NCBI GenBank assembly: GCA_964016885.1
Contig: OZ024740.1
Location: 394,940,001 to 395,004,000, forward strand
Direction: 5' to 3'
DNA from: Eledone cirrhosa
Taxonomy: Eukaryota
Length of the DNA: 64,000 nucleotides
The translations under genes were made by a program, and so were the position numbers. This document shows, in pieces, positions 13,646 through 60,888 of the stretch. Position 1 is the first letter of the stretch; every line of letters starts with the position of its first letter. The notes under the pieces are model-generated. The model saw only the letters and a program-made list of their open reading frames with translations, did no database searches and was not told where the DNA came from.

Positions 13646-13785
13646 ATGCTATTTCTTTTTTATATTACGTTGAGCCAACTTATGCAGCTTCATATGCAAA
13701 TGAGATTAATCACCTCATTTACACAGACGAGAAAAGTATATATTCTCGCTGTCTTCTAGCCCAGCAGTCGCAAGCGGCGGGAGGG

Positions 13786-13829
13786 ACCGTCCTGACGAAG
13801 GCCAGTTAAGCCTGAAATGCATAGACGGT
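13786..13829 (+). ncRNA. Minimal type I hammerhead ribozyme
   Basis: accgtc-CTGACGA-aggc(cagttaa)gcct-GAAA-tgca-TA-gacggt: perfect stems I and II, palindromic stem III (ATGCAT); predicted cleavage after 13823. Confidence 0.85.
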
Positions 13830-14039
13830 TGTCCCCCTTGTTTCTGCTGGACATCACCAGAGGGCCTTAGCACCCCGGTGTTTGCATAGCTATGGCTTCC
13901 TAAAACCGTATTTCTTTGGAGATACGACATATTTACATATTTATAATAATAAATATTTACAGTGTAACTATATTTTTTCCATTTCAGGTAGACGTGCTCC
14001 ATCATCCACTTTTCTAAAAAATAAATCATACACAAAACG

Positions 14040-21429: not shown

Positions 21430-22099
21430 ATAATATCTAAACATAGGAATGACCCAGCAGATAGGCAAATCAGAGAGGCCAGTGAAATAGAAATTAGAAG
21501 ACCAAAGCTAAACAGAAAGAATGAGTGGAACAACAACAACACCCAAACAAACAACACTGACCTAAGAGAAGTATAAATAAGTAAATAAAATAAAATAAAA
21601 TAAGATAAATAAATACATACACAAGCACAATAACAACAAGCACATAAACACACACTAGTCACCCAGCAGACACAACACTATACACACTAGTCACACAGAA
21701 AACATGACACTATACACACACGCAAACGCATGCGCAAAGAAGACAAAATAAAATAAACAAACAAGCAAATAAATAAATAAATATATAAACAGACTGAATA
21801 AAAAATGGCGTAGACATACAACACAACAGGAGGAAAAAATATAACACCACTGACGATGTTGCTGATGTGCAACGAAAGATTTATGTAAATTATGTAAACT
21901 ATATATATGTGTTTGTGTCTATATTGTATCTGTATTATTTTTGACCGTCGGTCAGTCAATGGCAACATTGAGGACCGAGTAAGTTAGATCGCACATATAA
22001 AAGACAGCGAGAAGCGAAAACCAACCAAACAGTGAGTGTGTTCTATTATTAATTCTGGCAATATTACACAAATATGACCCTCCCCAAGTATAACAATAT
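21430..22099 (+). repeat. Upstream pseudo-LTR (ORF 3' end + UTR + first codons)
   Basis: Near-identical to 25592-26258 with scattered substitutions. Confidence 0.95.
21845..21885 (+). ncRNA. Atypical hammerhead-like motif in the Penelope pLTR (also 26002-26042, 29120-29160)
   Basis: CTGACGA-t-gttgc(6 nt)gcaac-GAAA-gatt-TA-tg; core and stem II conserved in three copies, but proximal stem I is only ~2 bp. Confidence 0.5.
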
Positions 22100-25000
22100 T
22101 TGTTTCGACACACGATTTCATATAAAAAACCTCGCTAAACTAATTCATCGCCGCTACGGCATTAGCTTGTGCCAAGCTGAAAGGTTATTGAAAGACACTG
22201 TTTTCTGTTATATAAAAACTACAATAACAACAGAACAAATCCGCTTCTTAAAACACTGTGTTTCCTCCAAAACATACACAACAAACATATCAAAACAAGT
22301 AAATAATTTATTATTGAACAAAACACAAGCCGAACGACTAAAACACACAATAACAGTTAATATGAAAAGAACAACATATACAAAAGTCAACGCACTCTAC
22401 AGACAGAAACGCATTAACGGTAAGGAAATCCGAAATCTCATCACAGCAAACGAGAGAGATAACTTCATGAGCGTCATCCGACGTGAAACGAAATATGCTC
22501 GAAACGAATGCAATAGGCATTTCAAGAAGAAATTAGAATGGATGAATAAGAAAAAACTACGAGAAAGGAAAACCGAATATTCTCAAAAATACCCAGATAA
22601 CATCGACAATATCCGTATGACTGATGTAAAACTACCGGAAGAATTTACCAATGACCACACAGTAAATATCTATGGGAACACTTTAATCAGTGAACAAGAA
22701 CAACAAATCCTACGGTTACCACCCAAATTTGCCATCTACAAAAAGATTAACCCTATGGAGTGCAAAACGGAGCTGGAAAAGTGTTTCACAAAAATACGTT
22801 GGAATGCAAAGGTAAACAACAACAACAACAATAATAACGGTAGTAGTAATATAAACAATAACTCTGGGTATAGAAATAACAGCCATAACAATAACAATGG
22901 CAGGAAAGTGAGAAATAGTGATAATGGTAATAATACTAGCGATAGACAGAACAACAACAACCACAATAATAATAATAATAGAAACATTAACCACAGACAC
23001 AGCAACAGCGACCACAGTAGTAATAACGGTAACAATACGAACAACAACAACAATAACCACAGTGGTAATAATGGAAATAGTACATGTAGCAACCACAGTG
23101 GTAATAATGGAAATAGTACATGTAGCAACATCAACAAAAACAAGAAACATAATAATAGTAACAACCACAATAGTAGAAATAACAGTAACAACAACAACAA
23201 TAACGGTGAAGTAAACAACAATACATCTAGCAATCATAACAATAATAATAATGCTAATGATAGAAACAACAACAACCACCCTGATAACAACAATAGCAAC
23301 ACACACAACTATGACGATAGATATAATGACAACCCCTTAGAGAAACTATTTTTCAACCCAGCTGACAAAACATATAAGATGGGTAATATCTATCCTACGA
23401 GGTTACCCTTTAATAAAAGAGTTTGCATACCACAGCAAATAGATGACGAGACAGAGGCACAGTTCACCATAGCTAGAAATAAGATTAGACAAGTAGTAGA
23501 CAGGTATACTAAGAGACAGAGCAGACCAGAGGCCCAACAACTTGGGAGGAAACCTGTAGAAGGCTTGGTTAGCCTCAAGCAGCGCACAAAGGATGGTGAG
23601 GTAGTGTGTCTACCCACAGATAAGTCTGGTAGGATGTCAATAGATAGCATGCCGAACTACATCGAGGCTATGCAACCCACATCACCAACACGAGCGAAGT
23701 TGCACAACAAACACACGATGGGAGAGAAAAAATCCTCAACGCTCACATGATGATGTGGACTGACATCCTAAGGCCAAGCAGACGCACTGCCAACAACTTC
23801 CAGGCGTCTAACAATGGCATACCACCCTTGTATGGGCTCCGCAAAGACCACAAGACAGTCGACGACCCGACAACAGGACCACCAACAAGACCCGTATGCG
23901 GAGCTAATATAGCTAGCAACTACAGGATCTCCTACTTCCTCTCAATGGTTATACGCCCCATAATCAAGATGTCCCCAGATGTATGTGAAAGTACAGAGGA
24001 CCTCCTCAGCAGAATCAGTGAGTGCAACAAAAACAGGAGCCTATCCAACTGCATAATAGGCAGCATGGATGTGGTGTCACTGTACCCATCCATTAACATT
24101 GATTTTGCTGTGAAAAGATGTGTGGAGATGATCATTGAGAGTGAGGTGGAGTTCTGCGACGTCGACACAGACGAACTGGGCCTCCTACTTAGACTTACCT
24201 ACGACACTGACTACCTAGACAGCCATGACCTTAGATGTTTCTGCCCTAGTAGACCTATAAGAGGTAGACCCCCCACCATAACCTCAATGGCAAAAAAGAC
24301 TCCCATGGGAAGGTGGATTGGGTGGACCAAAGCTATACGGACCCCCCAAAACAATGATCAGGTAAGAAAAATGGTCGCACATGCAATAGGGGCTAGTATC
24401 AAAACTACCCTAAAGGGCCACATATTTAAGTTCAATGAGAAAATCTACACCCAAAATGAGGGAGCAGCCATCGGCGTCAGCATAGCTGGTGATGTTGCCA
24501 ACCTTTTCATGGTATGGTGGGAAAGGAGACTTAAAGATCTCCTTAATGAAAGCTCCATAGACCTCATCATGTACTCTCGTTATGTAGACGATATCAATAT
24601 AGTTATAAGAACACCCCCACTAGAGAGCACTAACAAGTTTGATTTAGAACGTAGCACGATGGAAAGCATCCAGCAGATGGCTAATTCCATACACCAGAGT
24701 ATAACTGTAACTATCGACTTCCCCTCCAAACACCCTAACAATAGACTACCTGTATTAGACACAGAACTCTGGATTAACACTATAGACGAGAGAGCCCAAA
24801 TTCTCCACTCACACTATGCTAAACCCATGGCCTCCAAATACCTGATACTCAAAAACTCAGCAATGTCCAGTAGTGCTAAGTTTAATATTCTGATCGCAGA
24901 TTTGGTACGAGTGATGAAGAATGTGTCCAGCATGTGCGACCCAATAGAAATGGAAAGACACATCCAACACTTCATCAACCGCATGCAGTTCTCTGGCTAC

Positions 25001-25738
25001 AACCAAAGAGACAGAGTCAGAGTATACGAAGGAGCCATGGAAAAGTATAAGACCCTCATAGAACTGGACATGAAAGGAATTTGCCCATTATACAGGAGCA
25101 AATCATGGAATAGCTTAAATAGGGCTAGACATAATATAGGGAAGGCCACATCATGGTACGACAACCAGAGATATCAGAGTGTCATGTTTGTGGACGCCAC
25201 CCCTGGAGGGAAATTAGCTAACCAGTGTAGAAAGGCCCTGAGAAAGACCCACTTAAAAATAAAGGTGGTAGAAAAGCCAGGAACCACCATAAAATCCCTG
25301 ATCAGCAAAACCTACCCTTTTAAGAAAACCCACTGTACCAATAGGAAATGTATCATATGCAAGGTGAACCCCCGGATAAACTGTAAAACTAGAAACGTAG
25401 TCTATAGCATAAGATGTACAGAGGGTACTTGCAGAAACATGACAACAACATACATAGGCGAAACAGCTCATAGCATAGGTGAAAGGATAGACCAACACTG
25501 GGGGGAACTAAAAGGACGAAAAAACGGATCAGTACTATACGAACATGCTAGACAACAACATGACGGTAACATAGACAACATAGAAATTAGAATAATATCT
25601 AAACATAGGAATGACCCAGCAGATAGGCAAATCAGAGAGGCCAGTGAAATAAAAATTAGAAGACCAAAGCTAAACAGAAAGAATGAGTGGAACAACAACA
25701 ACACCCAAACAAACAACACTGACCTAAGAGAAGTATAA
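22074..25738 (+). pseudogene. Penelope polyprotein (~1220 aa: N-terminal domain, Asn-rich tract, RT, Cys-rich linker, GIY-YIG endonuclease) split by one frameshift near 23678
   Basis: TDKSG motif; PLYGLRKDHK, TRPVC, SMDVVSLYPSI, GAAIGVSIAG, RYVDD, LPVLD; CxxxxCxxC...NVVYSIRC...YIGET...REA...LN. One added base near 23678 joins the two track ORFs (MQP-H-ITNTSEV...ILNAHMMMW). Confidence 0.88.
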
Positions 25739-26258
25739 ATAAGTAAATAAAATAAAATAAGATAAATAAATACATACACAAGCACAATAACAACAAGCAC
25801 ATAAACACACACTAGTCACCCAGCAGACATAACATTATACACACTAGTCACACGGCAAACATGACACTATACACACACGCAAACGCATGCGCAAAGAAGA
25901 CAAAATAAAATAAACAAACAAGCAAATAAATAAATAAATATATAGACAGACTGAATAAAAAATGGCGTAGACATACAACACAACAGGAGGAAAAAATATA
26001 ACACCACTGACGATGTTGCAGATGTGCAACGAAAGATTTATGTAAATTATGTAAACTATATATATATGTGTTTGTGTCTATATTGTATCCGTATTATTTT
26101 TGACCGTCGGTCAGTCAATGGCAACATTGAGGACCGATTAAGTTAGATCGCAGATATAAAAGACAGCGAGAAGCGAAAACCAACCAAACAGTGAGTGTGT
26201 TCTGTTATTAATTCTGGCAATATTACACAAATATGACCCTCCCCAAGTATAACAATAT
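25592..26258 (+). repeat. Downstream pseudo-LTR ending in ATGACCCTCCCCAAGTATAACAATAT then (AT)n
   Basis: Direct repeat of 21430-22099. Confidence 0.95.
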
Positions 26259-26379
26259 ATATATATATATATATATAAAAGTTTACATATAAATATATAT
26301 ACATACATATACATATACATGTTTTGCAACTGGTCAATTTGTGGCTCAATGAAAAATTAATAAATTAAACAATCAGAGG

Positions 26380-26771
26380 TATATATCATAAAACATGTCT
26401 ATAGAATCACAAGATAAAATATATACTATTTCCTCCCCCAATTAACATAATTAACCATATAAAAAATCAAATAGACCAGGCTATAAGAATGAGGTATTTA
26501 AATGTATTCTATTTTCTCCTAGTTTATTTTACACCTAATTCTGTTTAGTTAACTATATCTGGACGATTTACGCTGTCGAAATATTCGATAAATATTCCGC
26601 TACGGCCGACGCGAAGCGCTAGTTTCGGTTATTTGTCGGACATTTCTGCATAGAAGCCTCATTCTTATAGCCTGGTCTATTCGATTTTTTATATGGTTAA
26701 TTATGCTAATTGGGAGAGGAAATAGTATATATTTTATCTTGTGATTCTATAGACATGTTTTATGATATATA
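26380..26771. repeat. Inverted repeat, ~115-bp arms, ~160-bp spacer
   Basis: 26380-26494 is the reverse complement of 26657-26771 with few mismatches; right arm ends in (TA)n. Confidence 0.9.
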
Positions 26772-26936
26772 TATATAGTATTAAGGATACTATTTATGGT
26801 TATGTATATACTAAAACCTTTTATAGTTATATATATTTTAAACTCTAAATAGTGAAAGACAGTAATTTATTACTACCTTATTACCAGTAAGATAAATAGT
26901 TCAATGTAACAACATCAGTAGTTCTACAGAGCAGTT

Positions 26937-28288: not shown

Positions 28289-28334
28289 AGCTGACAGAGC
28301 CCTGTTTCGCACTTTTTTGGTGCTTATCAAAGCT
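28289..28334 (-). ncRNA. Decayed hammerhead ribozyme
   Basis: agct-TTGATAA-gcac(caaaaaa)gtgc-GAAA-cagggctctg-TC-agct; all stems intact, two core substitutions. Confidence 0.55.
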
Positions 28335-28494
28335 AACTACCCCTCCTGTTTGCTGAAAATCATGAATGTTTGATTCTTATAGAATTCTAGTAATAATCAG
28401 GAACTGATTATACAGAGCGGATGCCGGTCAAGCAGAAATTTATAATTAGAAATAGCTATTTCAGAGCACCTATGTATGTATGTATCTATCTACC

Positions 28495-30155: not shown

Positions 30156-30645
30156 TATCAAAAAATATTATTAAAATATATGTTATTATTACATAAATTT
30201 ATTATTAATCATCAACCAACAATTAATTATTAATTTTTCAATTAACAATAAAACTTATAAGAAATAACAAAATATATGTTAAAAATATAGGAATGTTCAG
30301 AGATTTTACCGAAGAAAAAATCTCTTCTTAGTAATAGCAATACAGCGTGAGGGAAAATTGATTGATCAATTTGTTGAGTGCTTTATATCATTTGTAAAAA
30401 TATTTGCTTGTTGTATCCCAACAAATTAAATATAACTTCTACATATATATATATATATGAAGTTAATATGCCCACGGGCACTAAGTACCCCTGGAAATAT
30501 ATAGGTTGTCTATGATACAGGGTTGTTCAATGGTATTAATTTGACATACCAGAACTATAATATTGAGATAAGCAGAACAAGCAAAATTCAAACAATTTTT
30601 TAAAATAAATTAAAAAATATAATTTAAATATTTACCTACTCCAGT

Positions 30646-30728
30646 TGCTTTTACCGATCGGTTTCACTTCATAAAACATTAGAAATCCATGGGACCTTTA
30701 ATGGAAAAGTCAAGATCATCAGAGAGCA
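30646..30728 (-). ncRNA. Type I hammerhead ribozyme with long stem II
   Basis: tgctct-CTGATGA-tctt...aagt-GAAA-ccgatcgg-TA-aaagca; palindromic stem III ACCGATCGGT; one stem I mismatch. Confidence 0.75.
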
Positions 30729-31130
30729 TTTTCCTTTCCTAGGACAAAAAGTCCCAGGAACGGCAAAATATATTGCCATCTGCTAGCTAGTACAGGATCA
30801 AATGAGGCCAAAATTTGACCTGTACATGAACCAGTCCGTAGCAAAAGCGGAAGTAAACATAGACGTGTTGTCTACCCCACCACTAAAAATAGCAGCCAAA
30901 TAGAACAACAGATTTGTTCTCTACATAACGGAGAATATTAAATGAAGTTAATATGCCCACGGGTACTAAGTACCCCTGGAAATATATAGGTTGTCTATGA
31001 TACAGGGTTTTTCAATGGTATTAATTTGACATACCAGAACTATAATATTCAGATAAGCAGAACAAGCAAAATTCAAACAATTTTTTTAAATAAATTAAAA
31101 AATATAATTTAAATATTTACCTACTCCAGT

Positions 31131-31214
31131 TGCTTTTACCGATCGGTTTCACTTCACAAAACATTAGAAATCCATGGGGATCTCTAATTGAAAAGTCAAG
31201 ATCATCAGAGAGCA
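31131..31214 (-). ncRNA. Type I hammerhead ribozyme, second copy
   Basis: Same core and stems as 30646-30728. Confidence 0.75.
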
Positions 31215-31564
31215 TTTTCCTTTCCTAGGACAAAAAGTCCCAGGAACGGCAAAATATATTGTGAGCGAGGAAAAGGATCGCGTACGGTGTGGGACGATGG
31301 AGGAAGTGTGAGAGAGGGTGAGTAGCAGAGAGTGAGTGAGTGAAAGTGCGAGGAAGAGGCTAGCTGAGAGAGGGTGAGTGAAAGTAAGAGGGAGAAGGAG
31401 AGAGAAGGGGGATATGTATTATATATATATATATATGTATGTATGTATATATGTATGTATTATATATATACGTATATATGTATTATATATATATATATAT
31501 ATATGTATGTATTATATGTATCAATGTATCTATAAAGAAACATATCTATCTGTCTATATTACTT

Positions 31565-33017
31565 CTCCTCAACAGTTACGCAGAGAAACTGTTCTAAAAA
31601 CAGTAATTTTTAGGACGGTTTCAAATGTGTCGAAAAAACCAGTTCAATTATCCCCAAACGATATTGAACTGGTTCTGAAGAATTCCATGAAGGATATTGC
31701 CTTCATCCAAAAAGGCAAACTTTTTGGAAGCATTTCGGTGTTGTTGAAAGACCAATTGACAGCACAAAAATATTCTGTATCGCCGATTGTGTCCCCCCTT
31801 TACACCTTTTCCCCCACATATATGGGAAAAAGAACACAAAAAATAAAGATTTCGAACATTGCACCAAATGTAAACGTCTGGTGGATTCTAACTGGCTTCA
31901 TCGATTTCGACGAAGACACCATCATTTTGGTGGGCAAGTCCTCCAGAGGCACATTCAATGATACAAGCATGGAAGTTCTGGTCCAAATGAGGCCAGAACG
32001 GATAGCTAAAATACCCCAACGTGTGCCTCTAGATGGAATTTCACACATAAACATTTCTGTTGAGGGTAGGCGGCCTTCATGTTACCACTGTTTAAGCAGT
32101 GGTCACCTAAAGGCTTACTGTCCTCAGTTAACTAAAAAAAAAAAAAGAAGCACTACTGCCAACACCCAAAACAACAACACAACCACCACCACCACCACAA
32201 CTACAACAACAACAAAAAAAACAACACGCAAACACAACCACAACAAAAACAAAAAACCAACCTGCAAGCACAGTCCCACCCAACGCCACTCCACCTAAAA
32301 CCACTGCAAAAACACCCACAAACACAACAGCTCCCCAAAACATACCTCTTCCAAATAGCATAGACACCACAACGGACGAGGCCCCCACATCATCACCAAG
32401 TGATGATGAGGGAGAGCCTCTCCGTTCGAAAAGAAAGAAGAAAAGACACCACAAGAACAAAAAAAACAACGAACATCACTACAAACGTACAACCACCAAC
32501 ACAAACAACACAAATATTACAAACAAAAACCCCCCGTCCCGAAAACAAAACCACGACATCACTCCAAACACAAATACTTACAACAAAACGAAAGCTCCCA
32601 CAAAAACAACAGACAAATACCACCGCAACACAACAAGAACATTACACATACATAAACAGTAAAAACAAAACTTTAATGGGGGTCATCTCCAACGACCCTT
32701 CGGTTTTCACCGAAGGGAAAACTTTTTCGAACTGTGTAGACAAACCTAATTTAAAGATGATTAGGGTCCCTACGGACATCTATAAGTCTTTAAAGGAAAA
32801 TTTTCCTAAGGACGTGGGTAATCCTTGTGTTAAACCCATTAACCGCGTCCTTTTAAAAAGATTCCCCACCCTCACCCCAGACACCCCCACCCCAGACACC
32901 CCCACCCCACCAAACATCTCCGTCCCCACCCCGCTGGAAACCAACACCAACCCAGACAACTCCTCTAACACCCCCATGGAAACCGTGCGGCCTGATTCCC
33001 GGGAGACGAAGAGGTGA
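31565..33017 (+). pseudogene. LINE ORF1 (gag-like, CCHC knuckle CYHCLSSGHLKAYC, Thr/Pro-rich tail), frameshifted
   Basis: Track ORFs 31378-32298 and 32400-33017 plus the intervening frame; the upstream ORF start lies in microsatellite. Confidence 0.75.
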
Positions 33018-33051
33018 GTGTTTTCTTCTCTTTTAACTTTTCAGAACCAAC

Positions 33052-36000
33052 ATGGCCAATATAAGAGTTGGATGTGTGAATGTACGCGGCCCCGGGATGC
33101 CCTGCAAACAGGGCAAACTCTTAAACGACCTCAGGTCGCACAGTATGGATGTAGTAGCCATTTGCGAGTCCAGGATCCACAGCGAGCGACAGCTGGCCCC
33201 CATCTTCAATGACTTTGAGATATACGCATCTCTCTGTAGACCGGGGGTGGGGGCGGGGTTGCCGTTTCGCTGCGGAAACACCTGGGCCTCGTAACACAGA
33301 CGGTACATCTGGACCCGGAGGGTCGACTGGTGGTCCTAGACGTTGACGGTAGTGAAGGTGGAGCCTTCAGGCTGGTGGCCGCATATGCCCCATCCGGGAC
33401 ACCGCGGCCAGACTTCTTCAAACGTCTAGAAACTTTTTTGGGAACGTCCCGCTCCTTGCATTTAGTGGGGGACTGGAATGGAATCCTAGATGCACGTTGG
33501 GACTATGTGGGAGCATGTCCCGATGAAGGAGGGTTAAAGCTTCAAACAGTTAATCGGCCGATTTGAACTGGCCGATAGATATCGACTAGATTTTCCGACT
33601 GTGCCACTGTGGACGTGGACTAATCGCGGTGGAACATCTAGATCGTACCTAGATAGGGTTCTAGTTAGATATAAGGATAGGGACATGTTAAGCTGTCCGC
33701 AAATGTTCATGGTTGCCTATTCAGATCTCAAACTAGTGATCTGCATGGTCCACCTCGATAGAACCCATAGACAAGGACCCGGCTACTGGAAGCTGAACTT
33801 GTCGTTACCGACATGCAAAGCCTACAGTAGACGGATTAGCACTTTAGTTAAACAGCACTTGACAGGGCCATTGTCAACAACAGATGGTGGTACCCTCTCA
33901 AGAAGGCAGTTAGATTACACTCGTTAGTTTTTAGTAAAGAATTAGCGTTAGATAGAAATAGAACCGAGAAAGAACTGGTAGATAAAGTAGAAGAGGCAAT
34001 TAGAAGTGGCAACGTAGCTAGCGTGCTAGCAACGAGGACGGCCTTGGACCAGTTCTTCGACGCAAAGAATGAGGGCTGCGTTGTCAGAAGCAAAATACGT
34101 GCTCTGGGAAACGAGGGAGCCAAAGCTGTTAGCTGGGCCCGAGTGACGGAGGCAAAAAGTGGCAACAAGTCCACGATTCGGTCTTTGAAGGACCTAGACA
34201 GACGCGTGATACGTGAGCCGAAGCAGATGTGTGCGGCCTTTCAGCGGCACTTTGCTCAACTGTTCGGGCAGGGCGGCGCGCCGGGAGGGGCTATGGATTT
34301 CGGTCCATACCTCGACGGCTTACCGCGACTCTCGGACAGCGAGGCAAAGTTCTGCGAAAAGCCAATTTCAGCCGCTGATATAGGGGACGCGCTGAGCCAA
34401 TGCGGCAAACGCAAATCTCCAGGTCTCGATGGTCTACCCTACGAATTTTACGTAGCAATGCCGGACTTATTCTGCGGTCTCCTGGAAGCGGTCTACTGCA
34501 ACTGGCAACAGAACGGGAGAATTCCCAGTTCTGTGACTGGGGGCGTAGTTACACTAGTCAGGAAGGACGAGAATAAGGGGGATGACATAGCCAACTTCAG
34601 GCCCATAACTCTGCTAAACACAGAGTTACAGATTTTGGCCAAGGTGTTCGCAAAGAGTCTGGCGCTTGTCGTCGAGAACCTGGTGGGAGAAGCGCAGACA
34701 TGCGCAATCCCGACCAGGTCCATACACGACAACCTCCACCTCATGCGATACATCATAGAGAGGGTAGGGTGTAAACCTGTCTTCGGTGGGGCCCTGATCA
34801 ACTTGGATAAGTCTAAGGCTTTCGATAGGGTTGACCATTGTTACCTGGATGCTGTGCTCGAGGCGGCAGGCTTTGGACCCGTGTTCAGGGGCTGGATTGC
34901 TGCAATGCACAACAGCAACATCTGCTCAAGGGTTAAGGTGAACGGTTACCTCTCGGAGCCTTTCCATATCACGCGATCCATTCGACAGGGATGCCCTCTC
35001 TCCTTCATTCTGTACGTACTGACTCTCGAGCCACTACTGCGGAAGTTGAAGCTATTACAGGGCATCCCTCTGGAACCGGGACTGCGGAAAGCATCGACGT
35101 GACAGTAATGGTGTCGAGCGCCTCTCAAATCGAGGAAGTCGGCACCTTACTGAAGGAATACGAAAGGTTTACAGGAGCGAAGCTGAACCGGTACAAGTCC
35201 ATCGGTTTGCAACTCGGATCGTGGAGAGGCAAACCGATGCCTTCCGATGGCGTCGTCGGACGCTGGACGGAAGGACCAGTAAAGCTGCTCGGGGTCTGGT
35301 TTGGTCCGGACCTCCAGGTGGAGAAGAACCGGAACGAGGTGTCGGCCAAGGTGTTTGCACTCACCCAGAAGTGGGCCGAGTGCAAACTATCCTTGAAAGG
35401 TCGAGCGGAGGTGGCGAACACTTTTATAGCGTCCGCCATCTACTACCGCTTGACCGTCGTGCGTTGTACAGCCAAAACGCTCACCAAAATGGAGCGCTCG
35501 CTCTTCCAATTCCTTTGGAAGAGGCGGGCTCCTTTGGTGAGAAGATCCATCTGCTGCCAACACCCTCCCAAACGGAGGGCTGGGGATGTCGTGGCTGACG
35601 ATGCGCAAACACGCGCTCAAGCTGCGGCATCTCTACGAATTCCTCACCGGACCACCGGTGTGGGCCCCATTCGTGAAGCGAGCTTTCCCACGACTCGTCT
35701 CGCTGACCGAGCTGCAGTCTTGGGTCAAGCAAAGACCGAGAAAAATGGGCGACTGGCACATAGAATGTGCTCAGGTGCTCACAGCCCTCTGGCAGGCGGA
35801 CCCGGCGATCAGTGGAGACTCCACTTTGTCATTCTATAGAGGGCTGATCCGCAGCAAGTGCGACGACGGGCTCGGTGAAACTCTGGGCGTAGAGGAAGAC
35901 GAACTGGCCAGTCTGTTCGGTAGGACCTTCCGCTCGGGACCGATGGACAACTTCCAAAAGTCCCTGGCCTGGCAGTGCTACCGAGGAGCTCTACCAGTTC

Positions 36001-36439
36001 GAGACAAGCTCTACAGACATGGGCGCCCGAGGTGCGTGCGAGACGAAGAAGAGTCGCGCACGCATTCATACACTGCCAGGGCGTCACCGACCTGTGGGGC
36101 TATGTAGAACGACTATTGTCGCGGGTGGGACCAATCCGGTTGACCACCGAGTCCATTGTCATGATCAAACCGCCACCTTTCTTCAAAAACGAAGGAGAGA
36201 CGGTTTTCCTTTGTTTGATAGCTATGGCGAAAGAGGTTGTATGGTGGACAAGGTTGAAAGGGCTGAGGTCGGAAACCTTTCTCTCCGGCCAACAACTGAT
36301 TCTTTTTTTCAAATACCACTTTGGAAGAAGAATCAGGATGGAGAGAGAGGTGCTGTACCCCAGCAAGTTTTATGAAAGGTGGGTAAAAGTGGCGAGAATG
36401 GCCCGAGTGAATGGGCCTTCTCTCTATATCAGCTTGTAG
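33052..36439 (+). pseudogene. LINE ORF2 (APE endonuclease + reverse transcriptase), multiple frameshifts, YADD motif deleted
   Basis: NVRG, GDWN, SYLDRV, GPGYWKLN, KSPGLDGLP, NFRPITLLN, KAFDRVDH, RQGCPLS; comparison with the 58-61 kb copy shows loss of AVSAYAD near 35092. Confidence 0.92.
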
Positions 36440-36719
36440 GTTGAAGAAAAAGAGGAGGAGAGGAAAAGAGTACAAACTCTTCGTACTCCTGGAGATGAGG
36501 GTTACACATTTTTTTTCGGGGTTATGTGTTTCCCATATGTAATGTCTCCCCCTATTGGGGAAATTCGACTAATTTTTAAATTACATTTGTGATAATATTT
36601 TACACGTTTTTATTGTATGTAAACTTCAACCTTTGTATTTGTCTCCTTTTTTCCTTCTTTTGTGCCCCTGTGGCTAATAAAGAAACATATATTACTTAAT
36701 GGGCGTCTATATTAAATCT

Positions 36720-36783
<64 letters not shown>

Positions 36784-36784
<1 letters not shown>

Positions 36785-37301
36785 TATAAAAGTAGCGAAA
36801 CAAACGGTTATTAAACAATTTTCTAAATAAATTAAAAAATGATTAAATAATCACCTGTTCAGATGCTGTTACCGACGGTTTCATCATTCCGAAAGATTGG
36901 AAATCCAACGAATTTCCAATGGAAAGAAATGAATCTTCAGACAGCCCTATTTCCACGCTATAAGGTATAGCAAGTAAATATTATGCTCCCTGCCCAACGC
37001 ATGCGGTCAAGCCGTTAAAGTGACACACACGCAAATCAGGTCGCTGATAAAAGCTGGATATTATAAACATGTCGAATTGCCACTAAAATTAGCGGCATTA
37101 TTCAACGTTTTGTTCTCTACGTAAGGAGAATAAATTATAGAAGTGGATGGATACTTCAACAGGTACAATGTACTTGTAGAAATATTCAAGTTGTTTATAA
37201 TACATGTGGTTCAATGGCACTAATTCGAGATACCAGAACAATATAAAAGTAGCGAAACAAACGGTTATTAAACAATTTTCTAAATAAATTAAAAAATGAT
37301 T
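36784..37301 (-). mobile_element. Retrozyme-like unit (457-bp period x ~1.13), distant relative of 30457-31261
   Basis: 36784-36844 repeats at 37241-37301; shares blocks (cactaaaa.tagc, ttgttctctac.taa.ggagaata, taccagaac) with the 485-bp family. Confidence 0.78.
36865..36945 (-). ncRNA. Type I hammerhead ribozyme
   Basis: gctgt-CTGAAGA-ttcatt...attggaaat/atttccaat...aatgat-GAAA-ccgtcgg-TA-acagc; perfect 5-bp stem I. Confidence 0.85.
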
Positions 37302-37346
37302 CTACAGGACTAGAACTGTTTCATTCTTTAGAAATCATCAGGAATC
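37298..37346 (-). ncRNA. Type I hammerhead ribozyme (monomeric stem III) overlapping a 64-bp perfect palindrome (37317-37380)
   Basis: gattc-CTGATGA-tttc(taaa)gaat-GAAA-cag(ttctagtc)ctg-TA-gaatc. Confidence 0.8.
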
Positions 37347-37471
37347 TGCAGATTCCTGATGATTTCTAAAGAATGAAACATATATTAAACATATATTAAA
37401 ACTTTTATTCTCTGCTATGTATTGAGGACCTTACTTACTGTGGTTACCTCCGATCAACCCGGAATAACTTA

Positions 37472-37510
<39 letters not shown>

Positions 37511-41620: not shown

Positions 41621-41662
<42 letters not shown>

Positions 41663-42101
41663 AGTAAGTAAGTTAATTTTTATAATTTTCTTATTTTACG
41701 TCTTTCATATAATTGTTCTGCATCCCCTTGCATTGAACCACAAAGTTACTAAGACATAACCTCTATATTTGCTAGCATAGGCATGCATCTGTATATATAT
41801 GTTGGTAGATATACTAATTCTTTATAATTATCTCCAAATTATTTTGTGGAGCAAAAATTTGCCATAACAGCTACTATAGTTCATAGTAATAGTTCGGCTA
41901 CTGTCTTCTTAACACCCCACTCCTCACTGATTAACCTCGTTGTTACGTGATTGATTCTTTTGAATTTGCCACCGACCAAGTAGGCAGTGATTTTTTCAAT
42001 GTCTTGGAATATAGTCCCCGCTTGCTTTTTTCCATCCACTGAATTATTTTTGTATAAATTCCCCGTGTCCACGCATCGCCTGGGAACTTAGCTGAGAATT
42101 G

Positions 42102-42185
42102 ACTTCCTGATGACGAAAGGCATTCTCCATGTTGTTCCATTCGGAAACCATGTTTATTCCCTTTCAGAAACTAATTAGTTGGAGT
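42102..42185 (+). ncRNA. Type I hammerhead ribozyme
   Basis: acttc-CTGATGA-cgaaagg...cctttca-GAAA-ctaattag-TT-ggagt; palindromic ACTAATTAGT; cleavage predicted after 42180. Confidence 0.82.
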
Positions 42186-42631
42186 GAAATTTTAGTAAGT
42201 AAGTTAATTTTTATAATTTTCTTACTTTACGTCTTTCATATAATTGTTCTGCATCCCCTTGCATTGAACCACAAAGTTACTAAGACAAAACCTATATATT
42301 TGCTAGCATAGGTATGCATCTGTATATATATGTTGGTAATATACTAATTCTTTATAATTATCTCCAAATTATTTTGTTGAGCAAAAATTTGCCATAACTG
42401 CTACTATAGTTCATAGTAATAATTCGGCTACTGACTTCTTAACACCCCACTCCTCACTGATTAACCTCGTTGCCACGTGATTGATTCTTTTGAATTTGCC
42501 ACCGACCAAGTAGGCAGTGATTTTTTCAATGTCTTGGAATATAGTCCTCGCTTGCTTTTATCCATCCACTGAATTATTTTTGTATAAGTTCCCTGTGTCC
42601 ACGCATCGCCTGTGAACTTAGCTGAGAATTG

Positions 42632-42714
42632 ACTTCCTGATGACGACAGGCATCTCCATGTTGTTCCATTCGGAAACCATGTTTATTCCCTTTCAGAAAC
42701 TAATTAGTTGGAGT
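42632..42714 (+). ncRNA. Type I hammerhead ribozyme, second copy
   Basis: Same as 42102-42185 with one stem II mismatch; cleavage predicted after 42709. Confidence 0.78.
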
Positions 42715-42762
42715 GAAATTTTAGTAAGTAAGTTAATTTTTATAATTTTCTTATTTTACGTC

Positions 42763-58061: not shown

Positions 58062-60888
58062 TATGTTTCTTTTATTTGCCACCAGGGCATCAAAAGTGGG
58101 ACAAGTACAATGGGGGAGTTTACAAAACAAGGCGTCCTCAATAAGGAGGAGGCAATAACAATATATAAAAATAAAATAAAATATAACAAAAAATAAAATT
58201 TATAACAAAGTCCTCAATAGAGAGGAGGCGCCTTGGGGGGTCGCACACACCCCCGAAAAAAGTGTACAACCCTTCTCCTCAGGAGCACAGAGAAGGGGTG
58301 CTCCCTTGGTCTTTAATCTTCCTCACCTATAGTCTGATGTAGAGTGAAGGCCCATTCACACGAGCCATTCTCGCCACTTTCACCCATCTTCCATAGAAAC
58401 GGCTGGGGTGCAGCACCTCTCTCTCCATCCTGATCCTTCTTCCGAAATGATATCGGAAGAAACGGACCAGTTGTTGGCCAGAGAGAAAGGTGTCTGACCT
58501 CAGTCCTTTCAGACGCGTCCACCATACAACCTCTTTGGCCATGGCTATTACGCACAGAAACACCGCCTCTCCTTCGTTTTTGAAGAGGGGAGGCGGCTTT
58601 ATCGTTACAATAGACTCGGTGGTCAACCGGATCGGTCCCACCCTTGACAGCAGTTGTTCGACATAGCCCCACAGACCGGCAATGCCCGAGCAGTGTACCA
58701 ATGCGTGTGCAACGGTTTCCTCGTCGCACACGCATCTGGGACAGATCTTTTTCGATGGGTCCCTTTCCCGGGCGCCCGTGTCTGTAGAGCCTTTCTCGAA
58801 CGGGCAGAGCCCTTCTGTAGCATTGCCAGGCCAGGGACCTCTGGAAGTTATCCATGGGTCCCGGGCTGAATGTCCTACCGAACAGGTTGGCCAGTTCGTC
58901 TTCCTCCATGCCTAGGGCTTCTCCTAGGGCGTCGTCGCACCTGCTAACCACCAGCCCTCTATAGAATGACGAGGTGGATTCTCCACTGACAGCTGGGTCC
59001 GCCTGCCAGAGAGCCGTGAGCGCCTGGGCACACTCGGTGTGCCAGGCGCCCAGTTTTCTCGGTCTTTGCTTGACCCAGGATTGCAACTCGGTGAGTGAGA
59101 CGAGTCTGGGAATGGCTCGCCTCACAAACGGGGCCCACACCGGTTGACCGGAGAGGAATACCTGAAGGTGCCGTAGCCTTAATGCGTGTTTACGTATCAT
59201 TAGCCACGGCATCCCCAGCCCTCCTTTCGAAGGGTGTTGACAGCAGATGGATCTCCTCACCATAGGAGCCCGCTTCTTCCAAAGGAATTGGAAGAGTGCG
59301 CGCTCCATTTTGGCGAGCGTTTCCCTTGGGCAAGGCACAACGGTCAGGCGGTAGTAGATGACGGACGCTATATAAGTGTTCGCCACCTCCGCCCGACCTT
59401 TCAGGGACAGTTTGCACTCGGCCCACTTCTGGGTCAGTGCAAACACCCTGTTCGTCACCTCACCCCAGTTCTTCTCCACCTGGAGGTCTGGTCCGAACCA
59501 GACCCCGAGCAACTTCACCGGGCCCTCTGTCCAGCGCCCGACGACGCCATCGGAGGGCATCGATCTGCCCCTCCACGTGCCGAGTTGCAGACCGATCGAC
59601 TTGTCCCGGTTCAGCTTAGCCCCTGTAAACCTTTCGTACTCCTCCAGTAAGGTGCCGATCGCCCCGATTTCCAAGGCCGTCGACACCATTACTGTTACGT
59701 CATCGGCGTAGGCTGACACCGCTTTCCGCAATCCCGGTTCCAACGGGATGCCCTGCAACAACTCCAACTTCCGCAGCAGTGGCTCTAGAGTCATTACATA
59801 CAGAAGGGAGGAGAGAGGGCACCCCTGTCGGATGGACCGCGCGATTTCGAACGGCTCTGAGAGGTAGCCGTTCACCTTGACCCTAGAGCAGATGCGGCTG
59901 CTGTGCATGGCATTGATCCAGCCCCTGAAAACGGGTCCGAAGCCTGCCGCCGCTAGCACCGCATCCAGGTAACCATGGTCGACCCTATCGAATGCCTTAG
60001 ATTGATCCAAGTTGATCAGGGCCCCACCAAAGCCGGGTTCGTTCCCAACCCTCTCTATGATGTATCGCATGAGGTGGAGGTTATCGTGGATGAACCTGGA
60101 CGGGATAGCACATGTCTGCGCATCTCCCACCAGGTTGCCCACGACAAGCGCCAACCTCTTTGCTAGCACCTTGGCCAAAATCTGTAACTCTGTATTTAGC
60201 AGAGTTATGGGCCTGAAATTATTTATATCGTCCCCCTTGTTCTCGTCCTTCCTCACTAGCGTGACTACGCCCTTGGTCACAGCACAGGGAATTCTCCCGT
60301 TCTGTTGCCAGTTGCAGTAGACTGCCTCGAGGAGATCGGGGAACAAGTCTGGCATAGCTAGATATAGTTTGTATGGAAGACCATCGAGACCCGGGGATTT
60401 GCGTTTGCCGCATTGGCTCAGCATGTCCTCTATCTCAGCGGCTGAAATTGGCTCCTCGCAGGACTTCGCCTCCCTGTCCGAGAGACGCGGCAGGCCGTCG
60501 AGGTATGGACCGAAGTCCACGTCCCCAACCGGCCCCCCGCCCCTTCCGAACAATCCGGCAAAGTGCTTTTGAAAAGCCTCGCACATCTGCTTAGGTTCAA
60601 GGATCACCCGTCCATCCTGGTCTCGCAAAGACCGGATAGTGGATCTGCTCCCTCTTTTGGCTTCTGTCACGCGGGCCCAGCTAACAGCTTTGGTCCACTC
60701 GTTTCCCAGAGCACGTATTTTGCTTCGGACGATGCAGCCTTCGTGTTTCGCGTCGAAGAACTGGCCCAGGGCTGTTCTCGACGCTAGCACTCTGGCCACG
60801 TCGCCGCTTCTAATTGCCTCTTCCACACTATCTACCAACTCTCTTTCCTTCCTATTTCTATTGGAGGCTAACTCCTTACTAAATTCTA
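58062..60888 (-). mobile_element. Tx1/L1-clade LINE, 5'-truncated, young (RT intact, one frameshift near 58750)
   Basis: KSPGLDGLP, DQSKAFDRVDH, RQGCPLS, AYADD; C-terminal C..C...ETVAHALVHC; (GATA)n on both sides. Confidence 0.95.

Follow-up and report, generated by a model that had tools for sequence, protein, structure and literature searches.

Two fixed start sites in a young hammerhead retrozyme family of Eledone cirrhosa, and their probable use in copying of circular RNA by a Penelope-type enzyme

Two start sites for cDNA are common to three related families of hammerhead-bearing repeats in the genome of Eledone cirrhosa. One of these, with a unit of 457 nt, is, judged by the identity of its copies, the youngest of several related non-LTR retrozyme families. 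It is probable that the unit is a retrozyme whose insertions into (TA)n are twin-primed by a Penelope-type enzyme, which rolls round circular RNA from these two sites. The copy described here lies in a stretch of 64,000 nucleotides of contig OZ024740.1 (the window, in whose positions all coordinates are given) and has the following parts.

36708..36789, no strand: (TA)n target microsatellite, leading into start site 1 (unit position 1 = 36784)
36784..37301, minus strand (RNA, or ribozyme, sense): insertion of the 457-nt family, 1.13 laps
36865..36945, minus strand: type I hammerhead motif, predicted cut between 36870 and 36869
37130..37240, minus strand: 'tail' segment of ~105-110 nt, from start site 2 to start site 1
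37130-37136: start site 2 (unit positions 347-353); start site 1 is 37241, i.e., unit position 1
37206..37239, minus strand: tail hairpin GUUC-stem-UU-GAAC, then CAC, which on the RNA lies immediately 3' of start site 1
37241..37301, minus strand: partial second lap of 61 nt, not an LTR, its length differing between insertions

The unit occupies 36784-37240 and its first 61 nt recur exactly at 37241-37301. It is non-coding, with a longest ATG frame of 35 aa, and its GC content is 35%. The cDNA direction at this locus was presumably left to right, and a single-arm event that began at site 1 and stopped after 518 nt is the best explanation for its structure. The partial lap terminates in a 4-nt GATT overlap with an adjoining palindromic hammerhead element, to which the truncated end of the insertion is joined. 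The locus holds one complete ribozyme, and many other loci of the family hold two or more. In the accessible text of a 2026 preprint (10.64898/2026.07.22.740005) an 'active' retrozyme has at least two complete ribozymes per locus, one more than is found here. The single ribozyme limits this locus as a source, not its membership of the family.

Copy numbers were obtained from the 3.0-Gb assembly. The 457 family gave 163 BLAST matches (identities were scored for 38 of 1667 candidates), and 23 of these are 100% identical over 518 nt; the word 'diverged', used for the unit in the first-pass annotation, is therefore misleading if taken to mean old. Exact matches numbered 549 for an 18-mer from the ribozyme, which also picks up subfamilies 79-97% identical, and 346 for a 19-mer specific to young copies; controls gave 0. 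The 485-nt and 483-nt groups gave 1638 matches to their ribozyme motif. Arrays of the 457 family reach 19 + 9 units at 457-bp spacing. The family and a sibling 85-90% identical to it are also present in contigs and RAD reads from other samples. These are uninformative on RNA, and contigs of 486-487 nt (the unit plus an overlap) are expected from tandem DNA as from circles.

Several other mobile elements surround the insertion.

21430-26260, plus strand: near-complete Penelope-like element with pLTRs at both ends, RT plus GIY-YIG frame, frameshifted
30447..31262, minus strand: insertion of the 485-nt sibling, 1.65 laps, beginning after (TA)n at a site homologous to site 2
30727-30647 and 31213-31132, minus strand: hammerheads of the 485-nt sibling insertion
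31560..36690, plus strand: LINE, presumed L1/Tx1-like, between the siblings, frameshifted, with an RT domain; 5' boundary approximate
37298..37476, no strand: older palindromic hammerhead element, other copies 83-89% identical, own hammerhead at 37346-37298 on the minus strand
41660-42760, plus strand: 530-bp tandem unit, a distant sibling, in which the long-stem-II hammerhead layout and the tail hairpin are also present

The clade label of the LINE is presumptive, based on motifs rather than on an RT tree. This LINE is ~82% identical to a second copy at 58244-60883; domain matches on a related copy comprised only RVT_1 and a weak zf-RVT. The palindromic element belongs to a separate family of ~190 bp with a short hammerhead. 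The 15 loci of that family that were viewed, picked by a query already having the inverted-arm shape, all have their two arms meeting exactly at the 5' end of stem I; joints in the 457 family, in contrast, fall at random. A weak Rfam HH9 match (E 0.55) was found to the element neighbouring the 457-nt unit. Short hammerhead-like motifs have also been noticed at 13785-13830 (plus strand), 50916-50874 (minus strand) and ~28290-28340 (minus strand), the last, read by eye, with UUGAUAA where CUGANGA is expected.

The hammerhead of the 457-nt unit, at 36945-36865 on the minus strand, has type I topology, with a 5-bp stem I (GCUGU/ACAGC) and the motifs CUGAAGA, GAAA and UA, so that the core is retained, as the first-pass annotation had it. 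Stem II is a 51-nt arm made up of a U.U base, a basal helix, an internal loop and an 11-bp apical hairpin, and stem III (CCGUCGG) is short and near-palindromic. At 36865-36945 Rfam yielded no hammerhead even at E<=10, an outcome that the length of the stem II arm probably explains. A canonical type I hammerhead has a short helix II, the pair G10.1-C11.1 and a contact of loop 1 with loop 2. In contrast, the usual G-C base pair is absent from stem II here and the U.U stands at its base. The hammerhead fold lies 4.9 kcal/mol above the free minimum for the 457-nt copy. As far as the sequence can tell, such a stem II lowers the claim to 'canonical', not the claim to 'hammerhead'. The base of stem II varies among 48 distinct variants (U.U in 21, G-C in 14, A.G in 6, A.C in 4, A-U in 2 and U.G in 1); the U.U that had been singled out earlier is present in the 457-nt unit and in the 485 copies of the window and is not universal. 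An intact core was found in 26 of 30 copies of the 485 family retrieved by BLAST. The same architecture, in other letters, occurs in families of ~520-560 nt that were reached via a different motif, where stem I is, e.g., ACUCC/GGAGU and the stem III palindrome is CUAAUUAG in place of CCGAUCGG.

According to the accessible parts of published work, ribozymes that act in dimeric form are marked by a short palindromic helix III (PMC4209133). An axolotl retrozyme whose helix II likewise has U.U at its base shows weak cleavage in the monomeric form and good cleavage in the dimeric one (PMC7229834). For Xenopus retrozymes, 8 of 9 dimers are given as not cleaving (10.64898/2026.07.22.740005).

The proposed homology of the 457-nt unit to the 485-bp family is borne out, with 64.8% identity over 543 columns (E 1e-41) in the comparison with 30571-31103. 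The 485 copies have the stem letters that had been quoted for them (stem I GCUCU/AAAGC, stem III CCGAUCGG, and U.U at the base of stem II). Neither difference in the stems is the paired change it had been taken for: GCUCU/AAAGC turns a G-C pair into a C.A mismatch, and in stem III there is a 1-nt loss in the loop. Genuine compensation is found in other copies (GCUUU/AAAGC and ACCUU/AAGGU) and in the basal part of stem II.

Selection on the ribozyme, which had been argued from these letters, has to be considered at two levels. In sequence, the hammerhead is no more conserved than the rest of the unit: between the 457 and 485 units its identity is 51/81 (63%) against 225/376 (60%) for the remainder (p=0.35), and of 216 windows of the same length taken from elsewhere in the unit, 106 match or exceed it. 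Against a third sibling of 483 nt the values are 48% and 41% (p=0.15). In structure, the suggested covariation test gave another answer. With stems anchored by script on the core motifs only, 88.6% of stem cells are paired over the 48 distinct variants, compared with 64.8% in shuffles (0 of 2000 reach 88.6%) and 39% and 53% when the pairing is slid, and 8 of 11 pairs have changed on both sides across families. Some four to six lineages underlie the covariation, and an intact core was in part a criterion for choosing the variants. Pair counts were not made on a MAFFT alignment of 26 ribozymes, in which the 457 rows were displaced by one column; a core identity of 10/12 in the comparison of sequences reflects the same displacement. 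Selection acting on the putative ribozyme fold is thus supported by the pairs. Conservation of a ribozyme is, by itself, ordinary for the retrozyme class.

Between families, conservation is highest in the stretch immediately 3' of site 1, which reaches 77-87% identity in 30-nt windows. The tail hairpin of this region folds in all four families that were folded. Its upper stem, which covaries across the four families, is 93.5% paired over 27 variants compared with 69.6% in shuffles, and two of its pairs have changed on both sides. The bipartite tail motif has 9944 matches in the genome, compared with 1 for the control, and relatives of the 530-bp unit make up the majority of the first 100 matches listed. 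The hairpin sits between the two start sites and, from its sequence, is likely a candidate enzyme-binding site. A reading of the motif as a tRNA-type promoter was given up, since both the fold and the covariation of the motif are found on the RNA strand. A variant of the motif (CATTGAGC..) occurs in other elements of the window, at 26280-26790 and 63641, one of them with inverted ends; a hammerhead was not recognised in either.

The start sites emerge from the anatomy of 93 insertions (143 arms) mapped at 91 non-redundant loci. The loci were taken from the top BLAST matches and from pattern matches on contigs C1 and C2, and long arrays and contigs C1-C3 are over-represented among them. In 135 of the 143 arms the cDNA end begins at site 1 (71 arms) or at site 2, positions 347-353 (64 arms), and 134 of these 135 starts come after TA-rich DNA; 7 other arms begin elsewhere and 1 runs off its contig. 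Seven other TATA/ATAT words in the 457-nt unit show no preference as starts. Two inverted arms are found in 50 of the 93 insertions. Both begin at a site in 44 of these, 43 of which combine sites 1 and 2 and only one of which uses site 1 twice (p=2e-12); the other 6 have one unclear arm. The 485 family has homologous start sites, with one site per arm in 7 of 7 two-arm insertions, and in the 483 family this holds in 9 of 10 clear cases (14 insertions). Arm stops are evenly spread: 3 of 142 fall close to the cut site, where 3.4 would be expected, and the ribozyme cut site is passed by 122 of 143 arms, with up to 19 laps. The template was therefore something other than a linear monomer produced by cleavage. 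Overlaps of 1 nt or more are present at 37 of 49 inversion joints. L1 twin priming also produces inverted two-arm insertions joined at short overlaps; it differs in that the primers of the 457 family use fixed, different sites and each arm can exceed the length of one template.

Variants within arrays bear on the template. Among 52 insertions with identities of 98% or more, 22 of the variant calls occupy all covering units, 3 are partial and 63 occur in a single unit. Three array-wide variants were counted genome-wide. The first has 27 matches, all in both arms of one 12.9-kb insertion of 19 + 9 units; the second has 11, all within one insertion and again in both arms; the third is not private, with 14 of its 18 matches at other loci. 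Private array-wide variants are the trace that would be left by repeated laps round one monomeric circle. They may also have come from a homogeneous array absent from the assembly.

On the RNA strand 5 of 9 array-wide variants counted as private in the 457 family are A>G, compared with 6 of 63 single-unit variants (p=0.003), and the excess stays after removal of the non-private variant (4/8, p=0.011). It was not replicated in the 483 family (1/13), and A-to-I editing written back into DNA was accordingly set aside as a weak lead. At loci of the 457 family (e.g., L166, L136, L168 and L212) array-wide variants lean toward A>G and single-unit variants toward U>C, which could reflect RNA editing and wobble errors of reverse transcriptase.

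A Penelope-type enzyme priming at the same two sites could instead have copied a long uncleaved read-through transcript of an array, with the ribozyme kept for another step or partly active. For the anole Penelope protein, the accessible parts of the report have uncleaved RNA as the dominant substrate and main template in vitro (PMC11167929). The lack of stops at the cut site fits linear and circular templates alike, arrays of up to 19 units exist that could be sources, and the variant with 14 of 18 matches elsewhere shows that one of those tested is common to other loci. A linear copy, however, would reproduce the differences between units of its source, and what is observed is the 22 fixed, 3 partial and 63 single-unit calls; in addition, for two variants, each of them present throughout one insertion, the assembly has no source locus. 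On balance this template is unlikely. Far less credit is due to growth of the arrays at the DNA level after insertion of a monomer, whether by unequal crossing-over, gene conversion or rolling-circle DNA replication, which would make the family a satellite with a relic ribozyme. Tandem arrays can indeed homogenise, and such a route is proposed for vertebrate retrozymes in what is accessible of the 2026 preprint (10.64898/2026.07.22.740005). It is difficult to reconcile with arrays whose starts, in (TA)n, are at fixed sites and whose stops are random, with private variants common to both inverted arms, and with copies that are 99-100% identical across chromosomes and stems that covary between families.

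The least probable explanation is that the L1/Tx1-like LINE mobilises the siblings, or that it split one ancestral array into both. It is suggested by their adjacency in the window and by LINE fragments that also end beside TA-rich DNA. The siblings do lie on either side of the LINE, as the first-pass annotation pointed out, but this is best taken as incidental, as the 485 unit is not continued in the stretch that follows the LINE. The two siblings differ by 35%, the 457 copy is identical to copies elsewhere, and they have no 3' tail in common with the LINE. LINEs are not known to show two internal start sites or multi-lap arms. A TA-rich tract lies between each sibling and the LINE coding body, and the LINE is best read as an independent insertion, siblings and LINE having gone separately into TA-rich ground.

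In the preferred reading, copying of a circle by a Penelope-type enzyme, the hammerhead likely cuts multi-unit transcripts into monomers, which would then close into circles. The tail hairpin likely recruits a Penelope-type reverse transcriptase/endonuclease, and the enzyme would cut the (TA)n tract and then, beginning at the two fixed start sites, make cDNA round the circle. Both broken DNA ends may prime on the same RNA molecule, one on each side of the tail hairpin, e.g., with a dimeric enzyme, and short overlaps would then serve to join one cDNA to the other or to the target. The chances are evenly balanced that the hairpin, small, bulged and structurally conserved in some 10,000 copies of a retrozyme superfamily, is where a dimeric Penelope-type enzyme docks, to prime both (TA)n ends on one circle, one on either side of the hairpin, and make many laps. 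If so, one mechanism would serve for the spread of animal retrozymes and for the one-tailed inverted insertions of Penelope. The 457 family gives numbered genomic footprints for the proposed copying of retrozyme circles by Penelope: one start site per arm, no stop at the ribozyme cut, and one variant in every lap of both arms. These can be tested with the 457-nt RNA in the existing in-vitro Penelope assay.

Young Penelope-like families are abundant in this genome, and one is nearly whole in the window. That element (21430-26260) has a CX4CxxC linker (Neptune-like) and an Asn-rich insert, its 3' end is in (TA)n, and it has at least 150 copies with 98% identity in the endonuclease, among them copies whose open frames exceed 1100 aa. 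Its Neptune-type pLTR gave no significant alignment with the 457, 485, 483 or 530 units. A second, high-copy family (L257-L285), whose 3' region leads into a long mixed TA/TG microsatellite, has neither the tail motif nor an alignable tail, two families having been compared in all; no hammerhead was found in the stretch of it that was viewed. At one locus, L268, ~1050 nt downstream of the endonuclease match, the end of another element carries a hammerhead with a stem II of 31 nt, a U.U base and a palindromic stem III, UGAUCA; the element ends in (TA)n. Active Penelope families have been described in Octopus vulgaris (PMC13282606, accessible text). The purified anole Penelope protein, in the accessible account of it, is predicted to be a dimer and acts on both strands, each of which it cuts and extends, with starts at two internal sites of the RNA; that these start sites did not differ between strands speaks against the present reading (PMC11167929).

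The retrozyme class is already known, as is, in the form of a proposal, its mobilisation by Penelope via circles; what is added here is the count of covarying pairs, the tail hairpin and the tests of variants across the genome. A literature search of main texts, few of them from subscription journals, found no cephalopod retrozymes, one-site-per-arm priming or array-wide private variants. Mobilisation by Penelope-like elements via circular RNA has been proposed for metazoan and vertebrate retrozymes (PMC7229834; 10.64898/2026.07.22.740005), and in the accessible literature the link rests on co-occurrence and pLTR likeness rather than on mechanism.

To judge from the same two sources in their accessible form, the 457 family resembles metazoan non-LTR retrozymes in that it is non-coding, has a GC content below 45%, consists of tandem units of a few hundred bases and lacks true LTRs. 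As in those of coral, mussel and axolotl, each unit has a type I hammerhead with a short palindromic helix III, and the U.U at the base of helix II is also that of axolotl HHR_Amex2 (PMC7229834). Stem II is a 4-bp hairpin there and an arm of 49-53 nt in the 457 and sister families, and mapping here has added, from sequence alone, a further conserved hairpin and a pair of fixed start sites. Penelope-like elements of the EN+ clades, whose tandem and inverted structure is described as being of unresolved origin in the accessible literature, offer a further set of likenesses: 5'-truncated partial tandems, an adjacent inverted copy, a tail at one end only, microsatellite or AT-rich targets, a hammerhead upstream of the 3' end and, in the anole element, two internal start sites that bound the tail (PMC8557442, PMC3846280, PMC11167929, PMC4209133). 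In contrast to the tails of 30-40 nt described for Penelope-like elements, that of the 457-nt unit is ~105-110 nt; the unit has no ORF, and there are many laps of one short unit.
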